The notes: generated by a model from the letters alone, not told the origin. A stretch of 64,000 bases of DNA from Gammaproteobacteria bacterium (GCA_035690065.1 DASSKW010000014.1:398-64397), one strand, 5' to 3'. Shown: positions 1,423-49,049, numbered from the stretch's first letter. Program-made: numbers and translations.

Positions 1423-2829
1423 GTGACAGCCCCCAACAGCCAGCTTCGAGTGGATTATAAGCCAAGCGGTGAAGCCGTCGTCCCGGAACGGCCGCGGAAG
1501 ACTGTCCGCAATCGCTATTGGCTGATGCTGCTGTTCGCCGTGATCGTCGGCGTCGGCTTCCAGCTCTTCAACCAGTCCGCCACTGCCAGCCATTCGACCT
1601 TGACCGTCGGAACCGTTAACCGTACCTCGAACCTGGCTCCTGATGCCGACACCCTCGCTGCCAGCGGTACGACACAGACTCCGGCCCCAATCGGCATCAG
1701 CGTACAGATGAAAGTGCGGCGTGGCGACAGCATGGCGAGATTGTTCGCCGCCAATGATCTGAGTGCTGCCGACCTCGACAGCATCATGCGTCTGGGTGAC
1801 GATACCGACCAGCTCAAGACCATCCTGCCAGGCCAACTGATCGACGTGACACACGATGCGCAGGGGCACGTATTGAGCCTGCACACGCAGATCGATACTG
1901 CCCATGTGCTCGACATCCGCGATGCAGCGCAGGGCTATGTCGCCCGGGTTTCCGAGATCCCGACCACGATCCATACCGCCTACGCTCATGGCGTGATCGA
2001 GAATTCATTGTTCGATGCCGCCAGTCGCGCCGGTCTCGATGACGGCGTGACCATGCAGCTCATCCATCTGTATGCCTGGGATATCGATTTCGCGCACGAT
2101 ATCCAGAGTGGCGATTCGTTCAGCGTGCTGTATCAGAAGATCCAGCGTCAGGGTCAGCCGATCGCCGATGGCGATATCCTGGCCGCAGAATTCACCACCG
2201 GTGGCAAGACTTTCAAGGTGATCCGTTACACCGATCCGGACGGCGATACCGGCTATTACACGCCGGATGGTCACAACGTACGCAAGGCCCTGATCCGTGC
2301 GCCGGTGGCTTTCAGCCGCATCAGTTCCGGCTTCAGTCTGCACCGTCTCAATCCCGTGCTCGGCTACACCCGTGCACACCAGGGTGTGGATTACGCCGCA
2401 CCAACCGGCACTCCCATAAAGGCCGCTGGTGATGGGCGCATCATCTTCCGTGGCCGCAAGGGCGGCTATGGCAATTGCATCATGATCCAGCATGGCGGCG
2501 GTTACAGCACGCTCTACGCACACATGTCCCGCTTCCGCCGCGGCTTGCATGTCGGCAGTCACGTCGAACAGGACCAGGTCATCGGTTATGTCGGAATGAC
2601 CGGGGTGGCGACCGGTCCGCATCTTCATTTCGAAGTTCGCGTGAACGGGGTGCCGCGCAATCCGCGCACCGTGAAGCTGCCGGATGCCGCACCGATCCTT
2701 GCCAAATATCTGCCCGATTTCGAACGTCAGAGTGGCATGCTGCTGGCACAACTCGACAACGTCAACGAGACCCGTCTCGCCAGTACAGCTTCCAGCAACA
2801 ACAATGGCAACACCGGCACTGCCCGCTGA
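1423..2829 (+). CDS. M23 family murein DD-endopeptidase (MepM/OapA-like)
   Basis: 468-aa ORF with a GTG start and an N-terminal TM segment. M23 metal-site motifs 'HQGVDYAAPTGTP' and 'GPHLHFEV' are present. Confidence 0.85.
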   Translation: MTAPNSQLRVDYKPSGEAVVPERPRKTVRNRYWLMLLFAVIVGVGFQLFNQSATASHSTLTVGTVNRTSNLAPDADTLAASGTTQTPAPIGISVQMKVRRGDSMARLFAANDLSAADLDSIMRLGDDTDQLKTILPGQLIDVTHDAQGHVLSLHTQIDTAHVLDIRDAAQGYVARVSEIPTTIHTAYAHGVIENSLFDAASRAGLDDGVTMQLIHLYAWDIDFAHDIQSGDSFSVLYQKIQRQGQPIADGDILAAEFTTGGKTFKVIRYTDPDGDTGYYTPDGHNVRKALIRAPVAFSRISSGFSLHRLNPVLGYTRAHQGVDYAAPTGTPIKAAGDGRIIFRGRKGGYGNCIMIQHGGGYSTLYAHMSRFRRGLHVGSHVEQDQVIGYVGMTGVATGPHLHFEVRVNGVPRNPRTVKLPDAAPILAKYLPDFERQSGMLLAQLDNVNETRLASTASSNNNGNTGTAR

Positions 2830-2852: not shown

Positions 2853-3959
2853 GTGAATCAATTCTTCATCGGCCTCATGTCCGGCACCAGCGCCGATGGC
2901 ATCGATGCTGCGCTGGTTGAATTCACTCCAGCTCCTGAATTACGCGCCAGCCATTTCCTGGCCTACGATCCGGTACTGCGCACGCGCATCCTGCAACTCG
3001 CTGCTGGCGATGCCGCCGGCGATGCCATCGATATTGCAGGCGGACTCGATACCGAATTGGGAGAATGGTTTGCACGCGCTGCCAACGCATTATTGGAGAA
3101 AGAGAAGATACCGGCTCAGCAGTTACGCGCCATCGGCAGCCACGGCCAGACCATCCGCCACCGGCCAAACAATCCGCATCCATTCAGTTGGCAGATCGCC
3201 GATCCCAACGTGATCGCTGCTCGCACCGGCGTCACCGTGGTCGCCGATTTCCGACGTCGCGATCTCGCACTCGGCGGCCAGGGCGCGCCATTGGTGCCGG
3301 CGTTCCATCGCGCCGTATTCAGTGACCCGAATGAATCGCGTGCCGTGGTAAATATCGGCGGCATCGCCAATGTCACACTGCTGCCGATGGACCAGAGTCC
3401 CGTCACCGGATTCGATACCGGCCCCGGTAATGTGCTACTGGATATCTGGAGTAGCCGACAACTGAAGCAATCGCACGATGCCGATGGTGCCTTCGCCGCG
3501 ACCGGACACGTGGATACCGACTTGTTGCATGCCTTGCTTGCAGATGCATATTTCACGGCGCCGCCGCCCAAGAGTACCGGCCGCGAACACTTCAATGCAG
3601 CCTGGCTGGATCGGCATCTGCAGCACACCAGGGTCTCCGCGCAGGATGTGATGGCGACGCTGGTGGAATTGTCGGCACAATCCATCCTCGATGCGATCCT
3701 GCATCACGCAGTACATACTGCCCGCGTGCTGGTCTGCGGCGGCGGAACCCACAACCGTTATCTGATGCAGCGGCTGGAATCATTGTTTGGAGAATCGCGG
3801 GTGGCATCCACCGAGCAATACGGCATCCACCCGGACTGGGTCGAAGCGATGGCGTTCGCGTGGCTTGCGCATGAGACGCTGGAAAATCGCCCCGGCAACC
3901 TGCCGGATGTGACCGGCGCTTCACGAGCGACCGTGCTGGGCGCTATTTACCCGGTCTAG
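2853..3959 (+). CDS. anmK: Anhydro-N-acetylmuramic acid kinase
   Basis: The N-terminus 'VNQFFIGLMSGTSADGIDAAL' is typical of AnmK. An in-frame GTG at 2853 lies just after the upstream stop; the longer ORF from 2475 overlaps the M23 gene. Confidence 0.9.
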   Translation: MNQFFIGLMSGTSADGIDAALVEFTPAPELRASHFLAYDPVLRTRILQLAAGDAAGDAIDIAGGLDTELGEWFARAANALLEKEKIPAQQLRAIGSHGQTIRHRPNNPHPFSWQIADPNVIAARTGVTVVADFRRRDLALGGQGAPLVPAFHRAVFSDPNESRAVVNIGGIANVTLLPMDQSPVTGFDTGPGNVLLDIWSSRQLKQSHDADGAFAATGHVDTDLLHALLADAYFTAPPPKSTGREHFNAAWLDRHLQHTRVSAQDVMATLVELSAQSILDAILHHAVHTARVLVCGGGTHNRYLMQRLESLFGESRVASTEQYGIHPDWVEAMAFAWLAHETLENRPGNLPDVTGASRATVLGAIYPV

Positions 3960-4021
3960 AAACAGCGAAGGCACCGACCGGTGCCTTCACGAAAGAACTC
4001 TATAACAATTCAATAACAGCA

Positions 4022-4145
4022 AAAAATGAGAGATTTTGGTTTCTGGGTAGGCAGAAATGACCGAGAAACCGGAGTGTACACGCTAGTACATGAAGCTTTC
4101 GAGGTCATTTCTAACACCCCCAGAAAGCAAAAGATCCATTTTTAG
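4022..4145. repeat. Copy A of a ~124-bp long-inverted-repeat (MITE/REP-like, terminator-like) element
   Basis: Arms 'aaaaatgagagattttggtttctgggtaggcagaaatgacc' and 'ggtcatttctaacacccccagaaagcaaaagatccattttt' are imperfect reverse complements around a ~40-nt centre. A near-identical copy lies at 48649..48772. Confidence 0.8.
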
Positions 4146-4510
4146 GCCGAGAACGAGGAGCCGCAGCCGCAAGTAGTCGCGGCATTCGGATTGCGGATCA
4201 CGAACTGCGCGCCTTCCAGTCCTTCCGTGTAATCGATCTCGGCACCGGCCAGATACTGGAAACTCATCGGATCCACCAGCAGGGTGACGCCTTCGTTCTC
4301 CACGCAGGTGTCGCCATCGTCGGTATTTTCGTCGAAGGTGAAACCGTACTGGAATCCGGAGCAGCCGCCGCCACTGACGAACACGCGCAATTTCAGCGCC
4401 GGGTTCGCTTCTTCCTCGATCAGCTGTTTCACCTTGCGCGCAGCGGCATTGGTGAAGATCAGTGAAGTCGGGGTCTGTGGTTGTGCGTCCATCTGCATCC
4501 AGTCAGTCAA
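4142..4510 (-). CDS. erpA: Iron-sulfur cluster insertion protein ErpA (HesB/IscA family)
   Basis: '[14 protein letters not shown]' and a C-terminal 'CGCGSSF'; collinear with E. coli ErpA. The start could be M1, M5 or M7. Confidence 0.9.
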
Positions 4511-4525
4511 GTGTCCAGTAACCGA

Positions 4526-4957
4526 TTATAACCCAGTCTTGGCAGGCTTATCCGATGCCGCTTCCAGCCCCGATTGATGGGTCAGTTTCGGCACCTGGCC
4601 GGCCGGTTTGTGCATCATCTTGCCATTCACCGCCGCGCCGACCGCCATCTCGATGAGACTGTAATACACATCGCCGGTGATACGCGCTTCGGCACCCAGA
4701 TCGAGACGTTTTTCGGCATGCACGTCGCCTTCGACAGCGCCGTTCACGATCACGTTCGGTACCCGTACTTCGCCTTTGATCATGCCGTGCTGGCTGACGC
4801 TCAACACTGAATCGGAGCCGGCTTCCGCACTCACGTTGCCTTGCACCGTGCCATCCACATGCAAGCCACCGCTGAAACGCAAATCACCGGTGATGGTCGT
4901 GTTGCGCCCCACCAGGGTATCGATGCGTCCTGCAGGAGTTTTCTTGCCGCCCAACAT
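4526..4957 (-). CDS. Bactofilin (polymer-forming cytoskeletal protein, CcmA family)
   Basis: 143 aa with a repetitive beta-helix pattern ('ITGDLRFSGGLHVDGTVQGNV...VNGAVEGDVHA...ITGDVYY'). GGAGG SD lies 9 nt after the upstream stop. Confidence 0.8.
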   Translation of the reverse strand: MLGGKKTPAGRIDTLVGRNTTITGDLRFSGGLHVDGTVQGNVSAEAGSDSVLSVSQHGMIKGEVRVPNVIVNGAVEGDVHAEKRLDLGAEARITGDVYYSLIEMAVGAAVNGKMMHKPAGQVPKLTHQSGLEAASDKPAKTGL

Positions 4958-12863: not shown

Positions 12864-12892
12864 TTGACAGTCCGGCAATGTGACTCTAAATT
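12864..12892 (+). promoter_or_regulatory. Candidate sigma70 promoter for the riboswitch-btuB transcript
   Basis: TTGACA (12864-12869), a 17-nt spacer, then TAAATT (12887-12892), immediately upstream of the riboswitch. Confidence 0.5.
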
Positions 12893-12898
12893 GACGCA

Positions 12899-13085
12899 GC
12901 CTTGAGGCGTCGTCCTTGCGGACGACACTCGGGAAGCCGGTGCGCTCATCACGAGCAATTCCGGCGCTGCCCCCGCAACGGTAGGCGAGTACGGTCCGTC
13001 ACGAAGCCACTGTACAGATCATGTACGGGAAGGCGACGAACCAGGAAATGAAGATTTCCACTCGCGAGCCCGGAGACCGGCCTGA
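12899..13085 (+). promoter_or_regulatory. Cobalamin (B12) riboswitch
   Basis: Conserved core 'GGGAAGCCGGTGCG...CCGGCGCTGCCCCCGCAACGGTA', B12-box 'GCCACTG' (13006-13012), and 3' 'AGCCCGGAGACCGGCC'. A downstream 'ctcctca' (about 13149-13155) can pair with the btuB SD 'tgaggag' (13199-13205). Confidence 0.85.
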
Positions 13086-13212
13086 AGGTACTGGTATCGG
13101 CGTTGCGGCGGGCAATGCGAACGGGTTCATGAACCCATCGCTTTTCTTCTCCTCATCCCGATTTGTCACCCTTGCTGTCACGCATGCGGGCGAGCTGCGT
13201 GAGGAGTCCATC

Positions 13213-46451: not shown

Positions 46452-48608
46452 TCAGGCGCGGGTTCGCTGGATCCGGATCACCTGCGGCAAGCCGCGCAAC
46501 TTGCGCAGGATACGCGCCAGATGCACCCTGTCCTTCACCCCGAACACGAAGGTCAGCACCGAGGTGAGTTCGTCACGGTCCTGCTGATTGACATGCTCGA
46601 TGTTGGAACGCATCTCGGCGATGGCTGCCGCCACCGTCGCCAGCACGCCGCGCTGGTTGGCGACATCGGCGCGGATCTCGACCGGGAACTCGCGCTTGAT
46701 GCGTCTCTCCCACTGCACCTCGATCCACTTGTCCGGCTGGTTGCGGTAATCGTTGAGATTGCCGCATTCCTCGCGGTGGATCACGATGCCTTTGCCGGCA
46801 GTCAGCACGCCGACGATGCCATCACCCGGAATCGGGTGGCAGCAGCGCGCGAATGTGACTACCAGCCCTTCGGTACCGCGGATCGCCAATGGCGCGCCGG
46901 GTTTCCCGGCTTCAGTTCCGGTATTCTGAACAGGCATCAAGCGACGCGCGACCAGTGGTGCCAGATGCTGGCCCAGACCGATGGCTTCGAACAATTCATC
47001 CTGATCCTGCAACTTGAATTCGCGGATCACCGTTTCGATTCGTTCGTCAGGGATACGATCGAACTTGAGTGAGAGTGAAGCGAGCGAACGCTCCAGCATG
47101 CGCCGCCCCAACGCGGCCGCCTCATCGTGCTGCAGGTTCTTGAGGAAATGCCGGATATTGGCGCGCGCCTTTGCGGTGACCACAAAATTGAGCCAGGCTG
47201 GATTGGGACGGCCCTTGGGCGCAGTGATGATCTCGACAGTCTGGCCATTTTCCAGTTGCGTGCGTAACGGCACCAGCCGCCGGTTCACTTTCGCCGCGAC
47301 GCAGGCATTACCGACATCGGTATGCACCGCGTAGGCGAAGTCGACTGCGGTCGCGCCGCGCGCCAGACGATGGATATCGCCCTTGGGCGTGAATACATAG
47401 ACTTCATCCGGGAACAGATCGACCTTGACGTTCTCGAGGAATTCCAGCGAATTGCCGGCACCTTCCTGCATCTGCAGCACACCCTTCAGCCATTCCCGTG
47501 CGCGCACTTCCGGTGCAGTTGCGCCACCGCCACTGGTCTTGTACATCCAGTGTGCGGCGATACCAGATGAGGAAATTTTTTCCATGTCTTCAGTGCGGAT
47601 CTGCACTTCCAGCGGCACCCCCTGTGGCCCGATCAACACCGTGTGCAATGACTGATAACCATTGGCCTTGGGGATCGCGATGTAATCCTTGAATTTGCCC
47701 GGTACCGGCTTGTACAGACCGTGCACCACGCCCAACGCGCGATAACAGGTATCGGTCTGATCCACGATGATGCGGAATGCATACACGTCCAGCACTTCGT
47801 TCAGAGACAGACCCTTGACCCGCATCTTGCGGTAGATGCTGTAAAGATGTTTCTCGCGACCGGCAACACTGGCCTGGACTGCATGACGTTCCAAAGCCTG
47901 ATTCAGACTGGTCGTGATCTTCTGCACCATCTCCTTCTGGTGGCCGCGCGCGCGTTTGAGATGACGCGACAGCACCTTGTGGCGCAGCGGATGCAAGGCT
48001 TCGAAACCCAGATCCTCCAGTTCCATGCGCATCGCGCTCATCCCGAGCCGGTGCGCGATAGGTGCATAGATCTCGAGAGTCTCACGCGCGATCCTGCGGC
48101 GCTTGGGTGACGGCATCACGCCCAGTGTGCGCATGTTGTGCAGACGATCGGCGAGTTTCACCAGGATGACGCGGATGTCCTCGACCATGGCAAGGATCAT
48201 CTTGCGGAAATTCTCCGCCTGCGCCTGTTCACGGCTCTCGAACTTGATCTGGGTGAGTTTGGAGACGCCGTCGACCAGTTGCGCCACTTCGCCGCCGAAA
48301 TCCTTGATCAATTCTTCCTTGAGTGTCGGCGTATCTTCGATGACATCGTGCAGCAACGCCGCTTCGATGGTGTGATAGTCCATACGCTGATCGGCAAGGA
48401 TCATGGCGACGGCTAGCGGGTGTGAGATATAAGGTTCGCCACTGAGTCGGCGCTGACCTTCATGAGCGTGTGCGCCGAATTGATAGGCGCGCTGGACATC
48501 GTCCACCTGCTCCTGTGGCAGGTAGGTACGGAGTTTGGCGAGTAGCGCTTCGAGTCCGGTAACCCGCTTCCCCCGGACGCGATCAAAGATGGAAGCGGTG
48601 TGTGACAT
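46452..48608 (-). CDS. spoT: Bifunctional (p)ppGpp synthetase/hydrolase
   Basis: 718 aa with HD hydrolase motif 'HDVIEDT', RelA/SpoT synthetase domain, and TGS and ACT C-terminal domains. The rpoZ-spoT-ridA-recG order is as in Pseudomonas. Confidence 0.93.
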   Translation of the reverse strand: MSHTASIFDRVRGKRVTGLEALLAKLRTYLPQEQVDDVQRAYQFGAHAHEGQRRLSGEPYISHPLAVAMILADQRMDYHTIEAALLHDVIEDTPTLKEELIKDFGGEVAQLVDGVSKLTQIKFESREQAQAENFRKMILAMVEDIRVILVKLADRLHNMRTLGVMPSPKRRRIARETLEIYAPIAHRLGMSAMRMELEDLGFEALHPLRHKVLSRHLKRARGHQKEMVQKITTSLNQALERHAVQASVAGREKHLYSIYRKMRVKGLSLNEVLDVYAFRIIVDQTDTCYRALGVVHGLYKPVPGKFKDYIAIPKANGYQSLHTVLIGPQGVPLEVQIRTEDMEKISSSGIAAHWMYKTSGGGATAPEVRAREWLKGVLQMQEGAGNSLEFLENVKVDLFPDEVYVFTPKGDIHRLARGATAVDFAYAVHTDVGNACVAAKVNRRLVPLRTQLENGQTVEIITAPKGRPNPAWLNFVVTAKARANIRHFLKNLQHDEAAALGRRMLERSLASLSLKFDRIPDERIETVIREFKLQDQDELFEAIGLGQHLAPLVARRLMPVQNTGTEAGKPGAPLAIRGTEGLVVTFARCCHPIPGDGIVGVLTAGKGIVIHREECGNLNDYRNQPDKWIEVQWERRIKREFPVEIRADVANQRGVLATVAAAIAEMRSNIEHVNQQDRDELTSVLTFVFGVKDRVHLARILRKLRGLPQVIRIQRTRA

Positions 48609-48648
48609 GTTGTGGCGGGTCGTACCGACCCCGTTACAGGGCGCCGCT

Positions 48649-48772
48649 AAAAATCAGGGATTTTGGTTTCTGGGTAGGCAGAAATGACCGAGGAACCGGA
48701 GTGTACACGCTAGTACATGAGGATTTCGAGGTCATTTCTAACACCCCCAGAAAGCAAAAGAGACATTTTTAG
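48649..48772. repeat. Copy B of the ~124-bp long-inverted-repeat element
   Basis: About 8 mismatches against copy A (4022..4145) by hand alignment, in the same orientation. It lies between the rpoZ stop (48780) and the spoT start (48608). Confidence 0.8.
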
Positions 48773-48779
48773 AGGTGCC

Positions 48780-49049
48780 CTACAGTGGATCCTCCGCGTC
48801 CATCACTACGACCGGTTGCTGTTCCACCGGCTCTTCGATGATCGGTTGTTCGATCTCGTCGAGGATCGCGGGACCGACGTTGCCGGCTGCAACTTCACGC
48901 AACGCAACCACCGTGGGCTTGTCGTTTTCCCAGGCTACCGTAGGTTCGACCCCGCGGGACAATTGCCGTGCCCGCTTGGTGGCGACCAGCACCAGCTGGA
49001 ACAGGTTATCGACGTTATTCAAACAGTCTTCGACGGTGACGCGGGCCAT
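48780..49049 (-). CDS. rpoZ: RNA polymerase omega subunit
   Basis: '[30 protein letters not shown]' is the canonical RpoZ N-terminus. Confidence 0.93.

Follow-up and report, generated by a model that had tools for sequence, protein, structure and literature searches.

What kind of sequence is the long hairpin repeat that stands twice in a gammaproteobacterial genome, once at the 3′ end of erpA and once between rpoZ and spoT, and what has it done to these genes? The question arises from a 64,000-nucleotide stretch of DNA from a Gammaproteobacteria bacterium (GCA_035690065.1, DASSKW010000014.1:398-64397), which was analysed at its full length and is here called the window. The initial annotation had marked the repeat as an element of about 124 bp, likened to MITEs (miniature transposable elements with inverted repeats) and to repetitive extragenic palindromic (REP) sequences and described as built like a bidirectional terminator. 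With a probability of about 85%, the element is a non-autonomous, non-coding MITE of 142 bp of the IS5 family type, with the ends GGGCACCTCTAAAAATC and folded as one long hairpin. This class is assigned because the family has IS5 ends and target duplications of IS5 length, and no transposase of its own. The repeat is selfish DNA of an ordinary kind and not a dedicated terminator; in effect, it is a new family of a known kind, for which a terminator role is unsupported.

Anatomy of the two copies

A repeat search of the window pairs 4019-4145 (copy A) with 48646-48772 (copy B), i.e., 127 nt in direct orientation with 94% identity and 44,627 bp apart, in agreement with the near-identical, same-orientation pair at about 44.6 kb that had been reported. 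In a pairwise alignment, the likeness of the copies breaks off sharply at both ends, beyond which the flanks are unrelated. Probes of 31-32 nt taken from the arms match copies A and B only, with no match expected from shuffles, and these copies are likewise the sole matches in the window of a hidden Markov model (HMM) and a covariance model of the family.

The unit is, however, longer than the 124 bp first proposed. The family unit measures 142 bp and corresponds in the window to copy B at 48639-48780, which carries about 9 nt of additional inverted repeat on each side of the limits given earlier. Its ends read GGGCNCC..CTAAAAATC and GATTTTTAGAGGTGCCC, and around copy B there is a 4-bp target duplication, TACA. 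Copy A is truncated: its row in the family alignment has neither GGGCACC nor GGTGCCC, the outer 7-8 nt on each side being replaced by unrelated sequence. It lacks a target duplication because of this truncation and, since its termini are lost, it should be immobile, in other words a fossil. Other parts of the first description hold, as TGTACA does lie at the centre of the hairpin and the element is non-coding.

Insertion sites and empty alleles

That the repeat is mobile and MITE-like, as had been suggested, agrees with the family ends identical to those of IS5 elements, the 4-bp duplications, the dozens of dispersed copies and the two empty sites. A 20-mer from the left arm occurs at 33 loci of a genome collection, of which 32 carry the element, all in six metagenome-assembled genomes (MAGs) of uncultured Gammaproteobacteria; a locus in an Anaerolinea bin (L004; individual loci are cited by L numbers) was discarded as a chance match of the 20-mer. 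The aligned copies give a 142-bp consensus with extended inverted repeats, beginning with GGGCACCTCTAAAAATCAGAGATTTTGG... and ending with ...AAAAGATCGATTTTTAGAGGTGCCC.

Among 57 unique sites with both termini, drawn from MAGs and metagenome loci, the 4-bp duplication is perfect at 39 and matches at three of the four positions at 11, whereas a 5-bp duplication fits only one. The duplicated tetranucleotides are rich in T and A (TTAA, ATAA, TTTA, TATA, TACA and others), with the consensus T-T-W-A. Because T/A-rich targets in this GC-rich genome are concentrated at stop codons and in short spacers, copies accumulate at the ends of genes. For instance, the stop codon of a long flanking open reading frame (ORF) overlaps the duplication at no fewer than eight independent sites (among them rpoZ in the window, L008, L009, L011 and L013). 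The flanking ORF of L005, L019 and L021 continues for 9 nt inside the element, up to an internal TAA (GGG CAC CTC TAA), and in L024 a TAG at the position of this TAA ends the flanking ORF. With respect to neighbouring genes, no clear bias in orientation emerged from a crude test based on ORFs.

Both window loci have element-free orthologous sites in relatives. At the site of copy B, L037 encodes an identical RpoZ protein followed by a TAA stop, a 25-nt spacer and the spoT ATG, and removing the element and one TACA from the window leaves a TAA stop and a 25-nt spacer, exactly as in L037. Since excision restores the TAA of the L037 type, the rpoZ stop was changed from TAA to TAG by the insertion, by way of the terminal base of the element. 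At the site of copy A, the spacer between anmK and erpA measures 54-61 nt in three MAG relatives with 80-84% identical AnmK (L050, L052 and L054) versus 182 nt in the window, a net insertion of about 126 nt relative to these empty alleles. The comparison that had been proposed for judging mobility, a count of copies and a look at orthologous sites, thus gave many further copies and two window sites that are empty in relatives. The repeat is not confined to two copies invariably present in its relatives; it forms a dispersed family with polymorphic sites.

Relation to IS5-family elements and to known MITEs

Full-length elements with the same ends are found in L086, L091 and L093. They are 1,288-1,293 bp long, both of their ends are identical to the 17-nt consensus GGGCACCTCTAAAAATC of the family, and each contains one ORF of 352-367 amino acids with the domains DUF772 and DDE_Tnp_1. 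This protein scores 280 bits against the NCBIfam model NF033581, 'IS5 family transposase' (cut-off 140). Its nearest annotated relative, 65% identical, is an 'IS5 family transposase' of the Sphingopyxis plasmid pSREG01, in which the element has the ends GGGCACCTCGAAAAATG and a 4-bp duplication, AAAG. In the IS5 group, target duplications are 4 bp long. The left inverted repeat of L086 resembles the left arm of the MITE up to about nucleotide 33, and its right inverted repeat resembles the right arm more loosely. The window element therefore has in common with these IS5-family elements the 17-nt ends, the 4-bp T/A-rich duplications and a subterminal likeness up to about nucleotide 33; it differs from them in its length of 142 bp, the lack of a transposase gene and an interior unrelated to theirs.

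One of the full-length elements, L091:2730-4022, is flanked by a TATT duplication and splits an apparent large serine recombinase gene (ORF 1667..2827, continued in 3963..4661). At E<=1e-80, the transposase has 7,207 homologous proteins, most of them from contigs of 1.3 kb; among the 120 homologues listed the only named hosts are the alphaproteobacteria Sphingobium and Methylocystis. Given the great size of the family and its fragmentation in assemblies, the homologue search gave no tie to the lineage of the window. When the whole element was compared with plasmid records by BLAST (word size 11), no insertion sequence (IS) with similar ends was returned, only the enterobacterial core match described below, and a literature search gave no match for the terminal 15-16-mers.

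The repeat has the features by which MITEs are recognised: it is shorter than about 500 bp and without a transposase gene, its family ends are those of an autonomous element, its duplications have the length of those of the parent, and its copies are dispersed and polymorphic. It is like the bacterial MITEs ERIC/IRU, YPAL (RU-2) and Correia/NEMIS (PMC2229807, PMC2759123, PMC10969869), of 100-170 bp, in its size, inverted repeats and long hairpin, and also in its sites between or at the ends of genes, in its probable co-transcription with neighbours and in having size variants with internal insertions. The sequence of YPAL is unrelated to that of the window element, and ERIC is likened to it by description only; unlike for ERIC or YPAL, the parent IS family can here be named from identical ends. 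In E. coli, BLAST against plasmid records matched only the repeat of the glrK-qseG type.

The history of the two copies may be pictured as follows. An IS5-family DDE transposase encoded elsewhere would bind both ends, excise or copy the unit and insert it at a T-T-W-A tetranucleotide with duplication of the target, that is, the element would be mobilised in trans. Copy B would have entered the rpoZ-spoT operon at the stop codon of rpoZ and stayed intact. Copy A would have lost both termini, and its internal TAA would have been taken over as the erpA stop. The copies are probably transcribed, within the erpA 3′ untranslated region (3′ UTR) and within the rpoZ-spoT mRNA, respectively, and any effect on expression, such as that of the RNA hairpin on mRNA stability or processing, would be secondary.

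Hairpin structure and size variants

Each copy folds as one long imperfect hairpin, and folding of both strands agrees with the long hairpin first described for the transcript of either strand. For copy A, the fold has -52.8 kcal/mol (z -10) on the plus strand and -46.7 kcal/mol (z -7) on the minus strand, and the DNA fold of copy B has -33.4 kcal/mol (z -7). Twenty short copies align on a single hairpin of 45 pairs, and 12 of these pairs show a compensatory change, compared with a mean of 4.9 in shuffles (none of 500 reaches 12) and 2-4 in slid controls. As judged from the aligned copies, this shows that the palindrome is maintained. The covariation cannot distinguish between selection on RNA, a need for hairpin or cruciform DNA, and correction by template switching, all of which it fits alike. 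By hand count, wobbles of the G-U type occur on both strands (about 22 versus about 14), and the orientation relative to the upstream gene is mixed (about 10 versus about 5).

Longer variants of 195-325 bp (L005, L030, L011, L018, L012, L016, L007 and L023) keep the outer stem and are built from a set of at least five extra GC-rich hairpin modules, placed at fixed internal points of the 142-bp frame. Read by eye, these modules also change compensatorily, for instance GGGCATGCA/TGCATGCCC versus GGGCATACA/TGTATGCCC, and none was found on its own outside elements in the window and loci L001-L044. The predicted fold of a 293-nt variant consists of a closing stem and about seven hairpins (-163 kcal/mol, z -13).

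A pair of alleles shows such a size difference at one site. L010:1797-2014 and L025:7842-7984, from two MAGs, stem from a single insertion at the rpoZ stop; their flanks are identical, and both have the unusual ends CTCTTAAAAATC and GGTGTCC. An internal module of 75 nt with three hairpins is present in one allele and absent from the other. Six further copies, each independent, carry this module at an identical place in their interior. The difference may be due to gene conversion from one copy to another, to site-specific insertion or to a precise deletion.

A conserved core in distant repeats

The centre of the element is found well outside its family. When copy B was compared by BLAST with plasmid records, chromosome-sized ones among them, only its central 41 nt gave matches, with 85-90% identity and a best E of 2e-4. 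They fall in the middle of a palindromic repeat, so far unannotated, that E. coli, Salmonella, Yersinia and Aeromonas carry between genes. All 5,426 complete E. coli genomes have this repeat, at 1-8 places each (median 5), and one K-12 copy lies in the glrK-qseG spacer at 2689522-2689663 (L047:3523-3664). It is probably the repeat called 'RSA/BEE95', a name that could be traced only to the title of a reference (PMC3751351).

The covariance model of the window family matches the enterobacterial repeats end to end and in one orientation only, with 23-44 bits (E 4e-11 to 6e-5) for E. coli, Yersinia and Aeromonas and 12.9 bits (E 0.07) for Salmonella. In the joint alignment, the core AACCGGAG-GTA...TAC-TGA-G-T..GAG is invariant, and arms and termini are not alignable. 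Thus, the enterobacterial repeat of about 142 nt has its length, its single-hairpin architecture and its central 40 nt or so in common with the window MITE, but its arms and termini are wholly different (GCCTATCCCA... versus GGGCACCTC... in the MITE), the one copy inspected shows no evident 4-bp duplication, and no link to IS5 ends is evident. In the metagenome MITE variants L098 and L092, IS5 ends and core are kept and the arms are different.

The initial annotation could place the element in no RNA or repeat family. This stands as far as Rfam is concerned, since the element is unmatched at the gathering threshold in a scan of the whole window, and permissive scans of copy A and 14 family loci returned nothing significant for it; it does not stand otherwise, as the element can be assigned to the IS5-type MITEs and its core resembles both the enterobacterial repeat and the Rfam family sX9 (RF02228). 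The latter is a Xanthomonas 'small RNA' ('sRNA') in whose consensus the 5′ part, AUGUACCACUCGUACACUCCGGUU, is the reverse complement of the core hairpin. Against sX9, whose gathering score is 44, the enterobacterial repeats reach 32-40 bits and copy A reaches 12.3 bits (E=10), while eight other family loci gave no sX9 match at E<=5. The frequency with which sX9 is annotated, among the highest of all 'sRNAs', suggests a repeat (PMC9029176).

The core is invariant in the window family, in L098 and L092 with their replaced arms and in the repeat of E. coli, Salmonella, Yersinia and Aeromonas, and it is also contained in the sX9 consensus. A speculative and rather doubtful extension is that the central hairpin of about 40 nt, (G/A)AACCGGAG-YGTAY-loop-RTACR-TGAGGATTYCGAG, could be a functional module, an RNA or DNA signal moved among Gammaproteobacteria by different palindromic vehicles. 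It may contain a tandem G-A internal loop, and it may serve as a processing or stability signal or as a protein-binding site, with growth by the addition of hairpin modules. If this were true, one hairpin core would be common to repeats of Gammaproteobacteria that are very distantly related, an uncharacterised repeat of E. coli and a widely annotated 'sRNA' family among them, and the function of core-bearing repeats would become testable. The core is the sole part of the element that might repay further work.

Literature searches with 13-mers of the core matched primers only. One of them, Bh5'NGS1, is directed at the 5′ exon of B.h.I1, a group IIC intron of Bacillus halodurans, and includes ACCGGAGCGTACAC, which is identical to 14 nt of the core (PMC1702495); the context of this 5′ exon is described as a terminator-type stem-loop motif (PMC1702495). 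The match could be due to chance, or the core could also be present in Bacillota.

Weighing the alternatives

Several observations weigh against an IS5-type MITE. Beyond about 33 nt, the interior is not derived from that of the IS. A tblastn search with the IS5-family transposase of L086 found no match in the window or in the fetched MAG loci, and the samples that yielded the insertion sequences with identical ends are other metagenomes. For copy A, the case for an origin by transposition, which is probable, consists of its family membership and the empty sites. Finally, neither the excess of compensatory changes in the stem nor the conservation of a 40-nt core far beyond the family is obviously required by a purely selfish MITE.

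The most direct alternative is the one contained in the first description, namely a bidirectional Rho-independent terminator module that has spread as a repeat and ends the convergent transcription of anmK and erpA. Both strands do form strong hairpins, that of copy A is bracketed by A6 and T5 and lies between convergent genes, and terminator-like MITEs such as SPRITE have been discussed in the literature (PMC10969869). Nevertheless, in full-length copies the A-run and the T-run are internal to the stem, where they belong to the IS5-type inverted repeat GGGCACCTCTAAAAATC, and nine further paired bases lie beyond them in intact copies. The two runs are base-paired, and changes in one are matched in the other (in L013 and L027, TGAAAATC goes with GATTTTCA); in several copies the T-run is broken and pairing is kept, as in GATTTTCA, ATTTCTAG and CACAATTAG. 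Between the T-run and the adjoining helix, which is AU-rich, there is an internal loop; an intrinsic terminator is defined by a compact GC-rich stem-loop with an unpaired U-tract directly after it, at the end of a transcription unit. In a consensus terminator scan, neither copy was called; the scan called instead a separate conserved hairpin (3965-3990) downstream of copy A for erpA. In addition, copy B, which has the same orientation to the incoming transcript as copy A has to erpA, sits inside the rpoZ-spoT operon. Because the element-free spacer is only 25 nt long and no promoter-like site was found around copy B, transcription of spoT would have to read through it. The likeness to a terminator thus does not extend to its defining parts, and this explanation is quite improbable.

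It is possible, although unlikely, that the element or its core hairpin is a selected RNA or DNA module, such as a 3′ UTR or intercistronic hairpin by which the stability or processing of the mRNA is set, as shown for ERIC in Yersinia, a protein site or an sX9-like sRNA, and that MITE mobility only spreads it; this would be compatible with an IS5-type MITE. The 12 compensatory pairs of 45, above shuffles and slid controls, would fit such a module, as would the compensatory changes seen by eye in the hairpins of the long variants, the fold with about seven hairpins at z -13, the invariance of the roughly 40-nt core across elements with different arms and even termini, and the scores of the enterobacterial repeats just under the sX9 gathering score (32-40 versus 44 bits). 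ERIC hairpins are reported to regulate neighbouring genes (PMC2267715). By contrast, the orientation to the upstream gene is mixed, the wobbles on both strands fit a DNA palindrome as well as an RNA, and both window sites are empty in relatives, so that the genes do not need the element. Compensatory changes in quasi-palindromes can also arise mechanically by template switching, without selection, which counts against a functional module. A palindromic, intergenic, multicopy sequence with compensatory stem changes might also call to mind a repeat of the REP or bacterial interspersed mosaic element (BIME) type, spread on single-strand hairpins by a REP-associated tyrosine transposase (RAYT), an IS200/IS605-like Y1 transposase, and the repeat had indeed been called REP-like. 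REPs are palindromes of 20-40 nt with a GTAG/CGTC tag, often clustered and without target duplication (PMC3733652). The unit here has 142 bp, its family ends match those of IS5-family DDE elements over all 17 nt, its target is duplicated over 4 bp, its copies are solitary rather than in clustered arrays, and no GTAG/CGTC tag was seen by eye at either consensus end; the REP label is not supported, and a spread by RAYT is very improbable. A Tn3-family-derived miniature element (TIME) was rejected, with next to no chance of being correct. The only reason for considering it is a possible likeness of the first 9-15 nt of the GGGCACCTC end to the Tn21 inverted repeat. TIMEs have 5-bp target duplications and Tn3-type inverted repeats of about 38 bp, whereas the duplication here is one of 4 bp, and the full-length partners encode transposases of the IS5 family, not of the Tn3 family.

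Effects on neighbouring genes

The flanking genes of copy A are anmK and erpA, and NCBIfam matches bear out their convergent arrangement. Contrary to the initial annotation, copy A does not occupy the whole gap between them: some 59 nt of native spacer separate it from anmK. By contrast, the claim that the repeat supplies the erpA stop codon (4142-4144) is correct, the TAA being inside the repeat. In L050, the empty-site relative that was read by hand, erpA ends with a TAG in native sequence. The codons before the stop in the window (...SFSA) are native erpA and not element sequence, and since these native codons stand directly before the TAA of the element, the termini of copy A must have been lost. 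As a conjecture, the right junction might have arisen by insertion into a TTAG target and the later loss of 12 nt by deletion between this TTAG, once duplicated, and the one that ends TTTTTAG in the inverted repeat; this would fit the observed junction exactly, TTAG being the erpA stop region on the plus strand.

The hairpin called by the terminator scan, between anmK and copy A, is kept in three of four aligned empty alleles (L050, L051 and L054), the hairpin of L052 having diverged there. It is older than the insertion, because it is kept in empty alleles, and it is probably the native terminator common to the convergent anmK and erpA. Its stem has GGCACC/GGTGCC in common with the MITE termini, probably by chance.

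At the site of copy B, the gene that follows downstream of rpoZ in the corresponding place of L034 encodes 718 amino acids, as in the window, with HD, RelA_SpoT, TGS and ACT domains. Taken as MITE insertions, the two copies, hairpins between genes that otherwise defy annotation, account for 126 extra nucleotides in the erpA 3′ region and for 146 nt inside the rpoZ-spoT operon, and they provide two concrete cases in which such an element would have altered the end of a gene: a fragment that donates a stop codon to erpA, a gene of an essential pathway, and an insertion through which the TAA stop of rpoZ became TAG. MITEs are known at times to contribute codons or stops to flanking genes (PMC2759123). 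The features discussed are collected in Table 1.

Table 1. Features of the repeat, its neighbouring genes and the enterobacterial repeats; positions are those of the window unless a locus is given.
Feature	Position	Strand	Remarks
Copy B, intact 142-bp unit (probable MITE), one long hairpin, between rpoZ stop and spoT start	48639..48780	+	Full-model HMM and covariance model matches; termini GGGCGCCGCTAAAAATC and CATTTTTAGAGGTGCCC
Left 17-nt terminal inverted repeat of copy B, GGGCGCCGCTAAAAATC	48639..48655	+	3 mismatches to consensus GGGCACCTCTAAAAATC
Right terminal inverted repeat of copy B	48764..48780	-	Reverse complement GGGCACCTCTAAAAATG, 16/17 match to IS5-type end
Left target-site duplication TACA	48635..48638	.	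Excising the element and one TACA gives rpoZ TAA and 25-nt spacer, as in L037
Right target-site duplication TACA	48781..48784	.	Its TA and the terminal base of the element (48780) form the present rpoZ stop TAG
Copy A, truncated, 127 nt, in erpA 3′ region	4019..4145	+	Without ~7 nt (left) and ~8 nt (right) of the termini; no target duplication
Conserved ~40-nt core, copy A, GAGAAACCGGAG-TGTAC-ACGCTA-GTACA-TGAAGCTTTCGAG	4063..4103	+	Invariant or nearly so across window family, L098, L092 and E. coli/Yersinia/Aeromonas repeats
Conserved core, copy B	48690..48730	+	BLAST 85-90% identity to enterobacterial repeat, best E 2e-4
anmK	2853..3959	+	NCBIfam NF007139, 505 bits; homologues 368 aa
erpA, 118 aa	4142..4498	-	NCBIfam NF010147, 193 bits; identical protein in L044
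erpA stop TAA	4142..4144	-	Internal TAA of the element, positions 10-12 from full-length right end
rpoZ, 89 aa	48780..49049	-	Translation; Pfam RNA_pol_Rpb6 on identical product
rpoZ stop TAG	48780..48782	-	Terminal base of the element and TA of right TACA
spoT/relA-family gene, 718 aa, directly downstream of copy B	46452..48608	-	ORF list
GC-rich hairpin of terminator-like build GTGAAGGCACCGGTCGGTGCCTTCGC, native, in the spacer from anmK to copy A and outside the element	3965..3990	.	Terminator scan call on - strand
~142-nt repeat copies of E. coli/Yersinia/Aeromonas	L046:348-489, L047:3523-3664, L045:353-482, L048:347-489		

Related families and further observations

The terminal pattern GGGCACCTCTAAAAATC-N4-5-TTTTG was found at 48 loci in metagenome contigs, most of which are MITEs of several unrelated interiors (110, 118-122, 140-143, 146-152 and 180 bp) with the ends and the 4-bp duplications in common. 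L055-L102, from diverse metagenomes, include at least five other MITE families with unrelated interiors and the same IS5-type ends and 4-bp duplications; for instance, there is one of 110 bp in Ga0307372-74 and one of 118-122 bp in Ga0105164, besides those of 140-143 and 180 bp. An apparent IS of 1,292 bp in L094 was rejected as such, being a Sel1-repeat gene between two MITE ends. In a search for solitary left termini with a 28-nt probe, across the fetched loci and the window, every match was a known MITE copy.

Because many copies sit at contig ends, the family breaks MAG assemblies. The combination of the ends GGGCACCTCTAAAAATC, a 4-bp duplication and a T-T-W-A target provides a signature for finding assembly-breaking MITE families of this kind. 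In L029, two inverted copies (1-77 and 208-348) lie 130 bp apart at a contig end. The copy at L009:3752-3909 has an internal tandem duplication of 16 nt (ATTTCTAACACCC[A/G]C).

Two riboswitches were also observed. A metagenome contig that also has a copy of the MITE family carries a c-di-GMP-I riboswitch at L071:1277-1363 (RF01051, 88.8 bits). In the window, the sole Rfam family at the gathering score is a cobalamin riboswitch aptamer (RF00174, 105.8 bits) at 12888-13099 on the plus strand.

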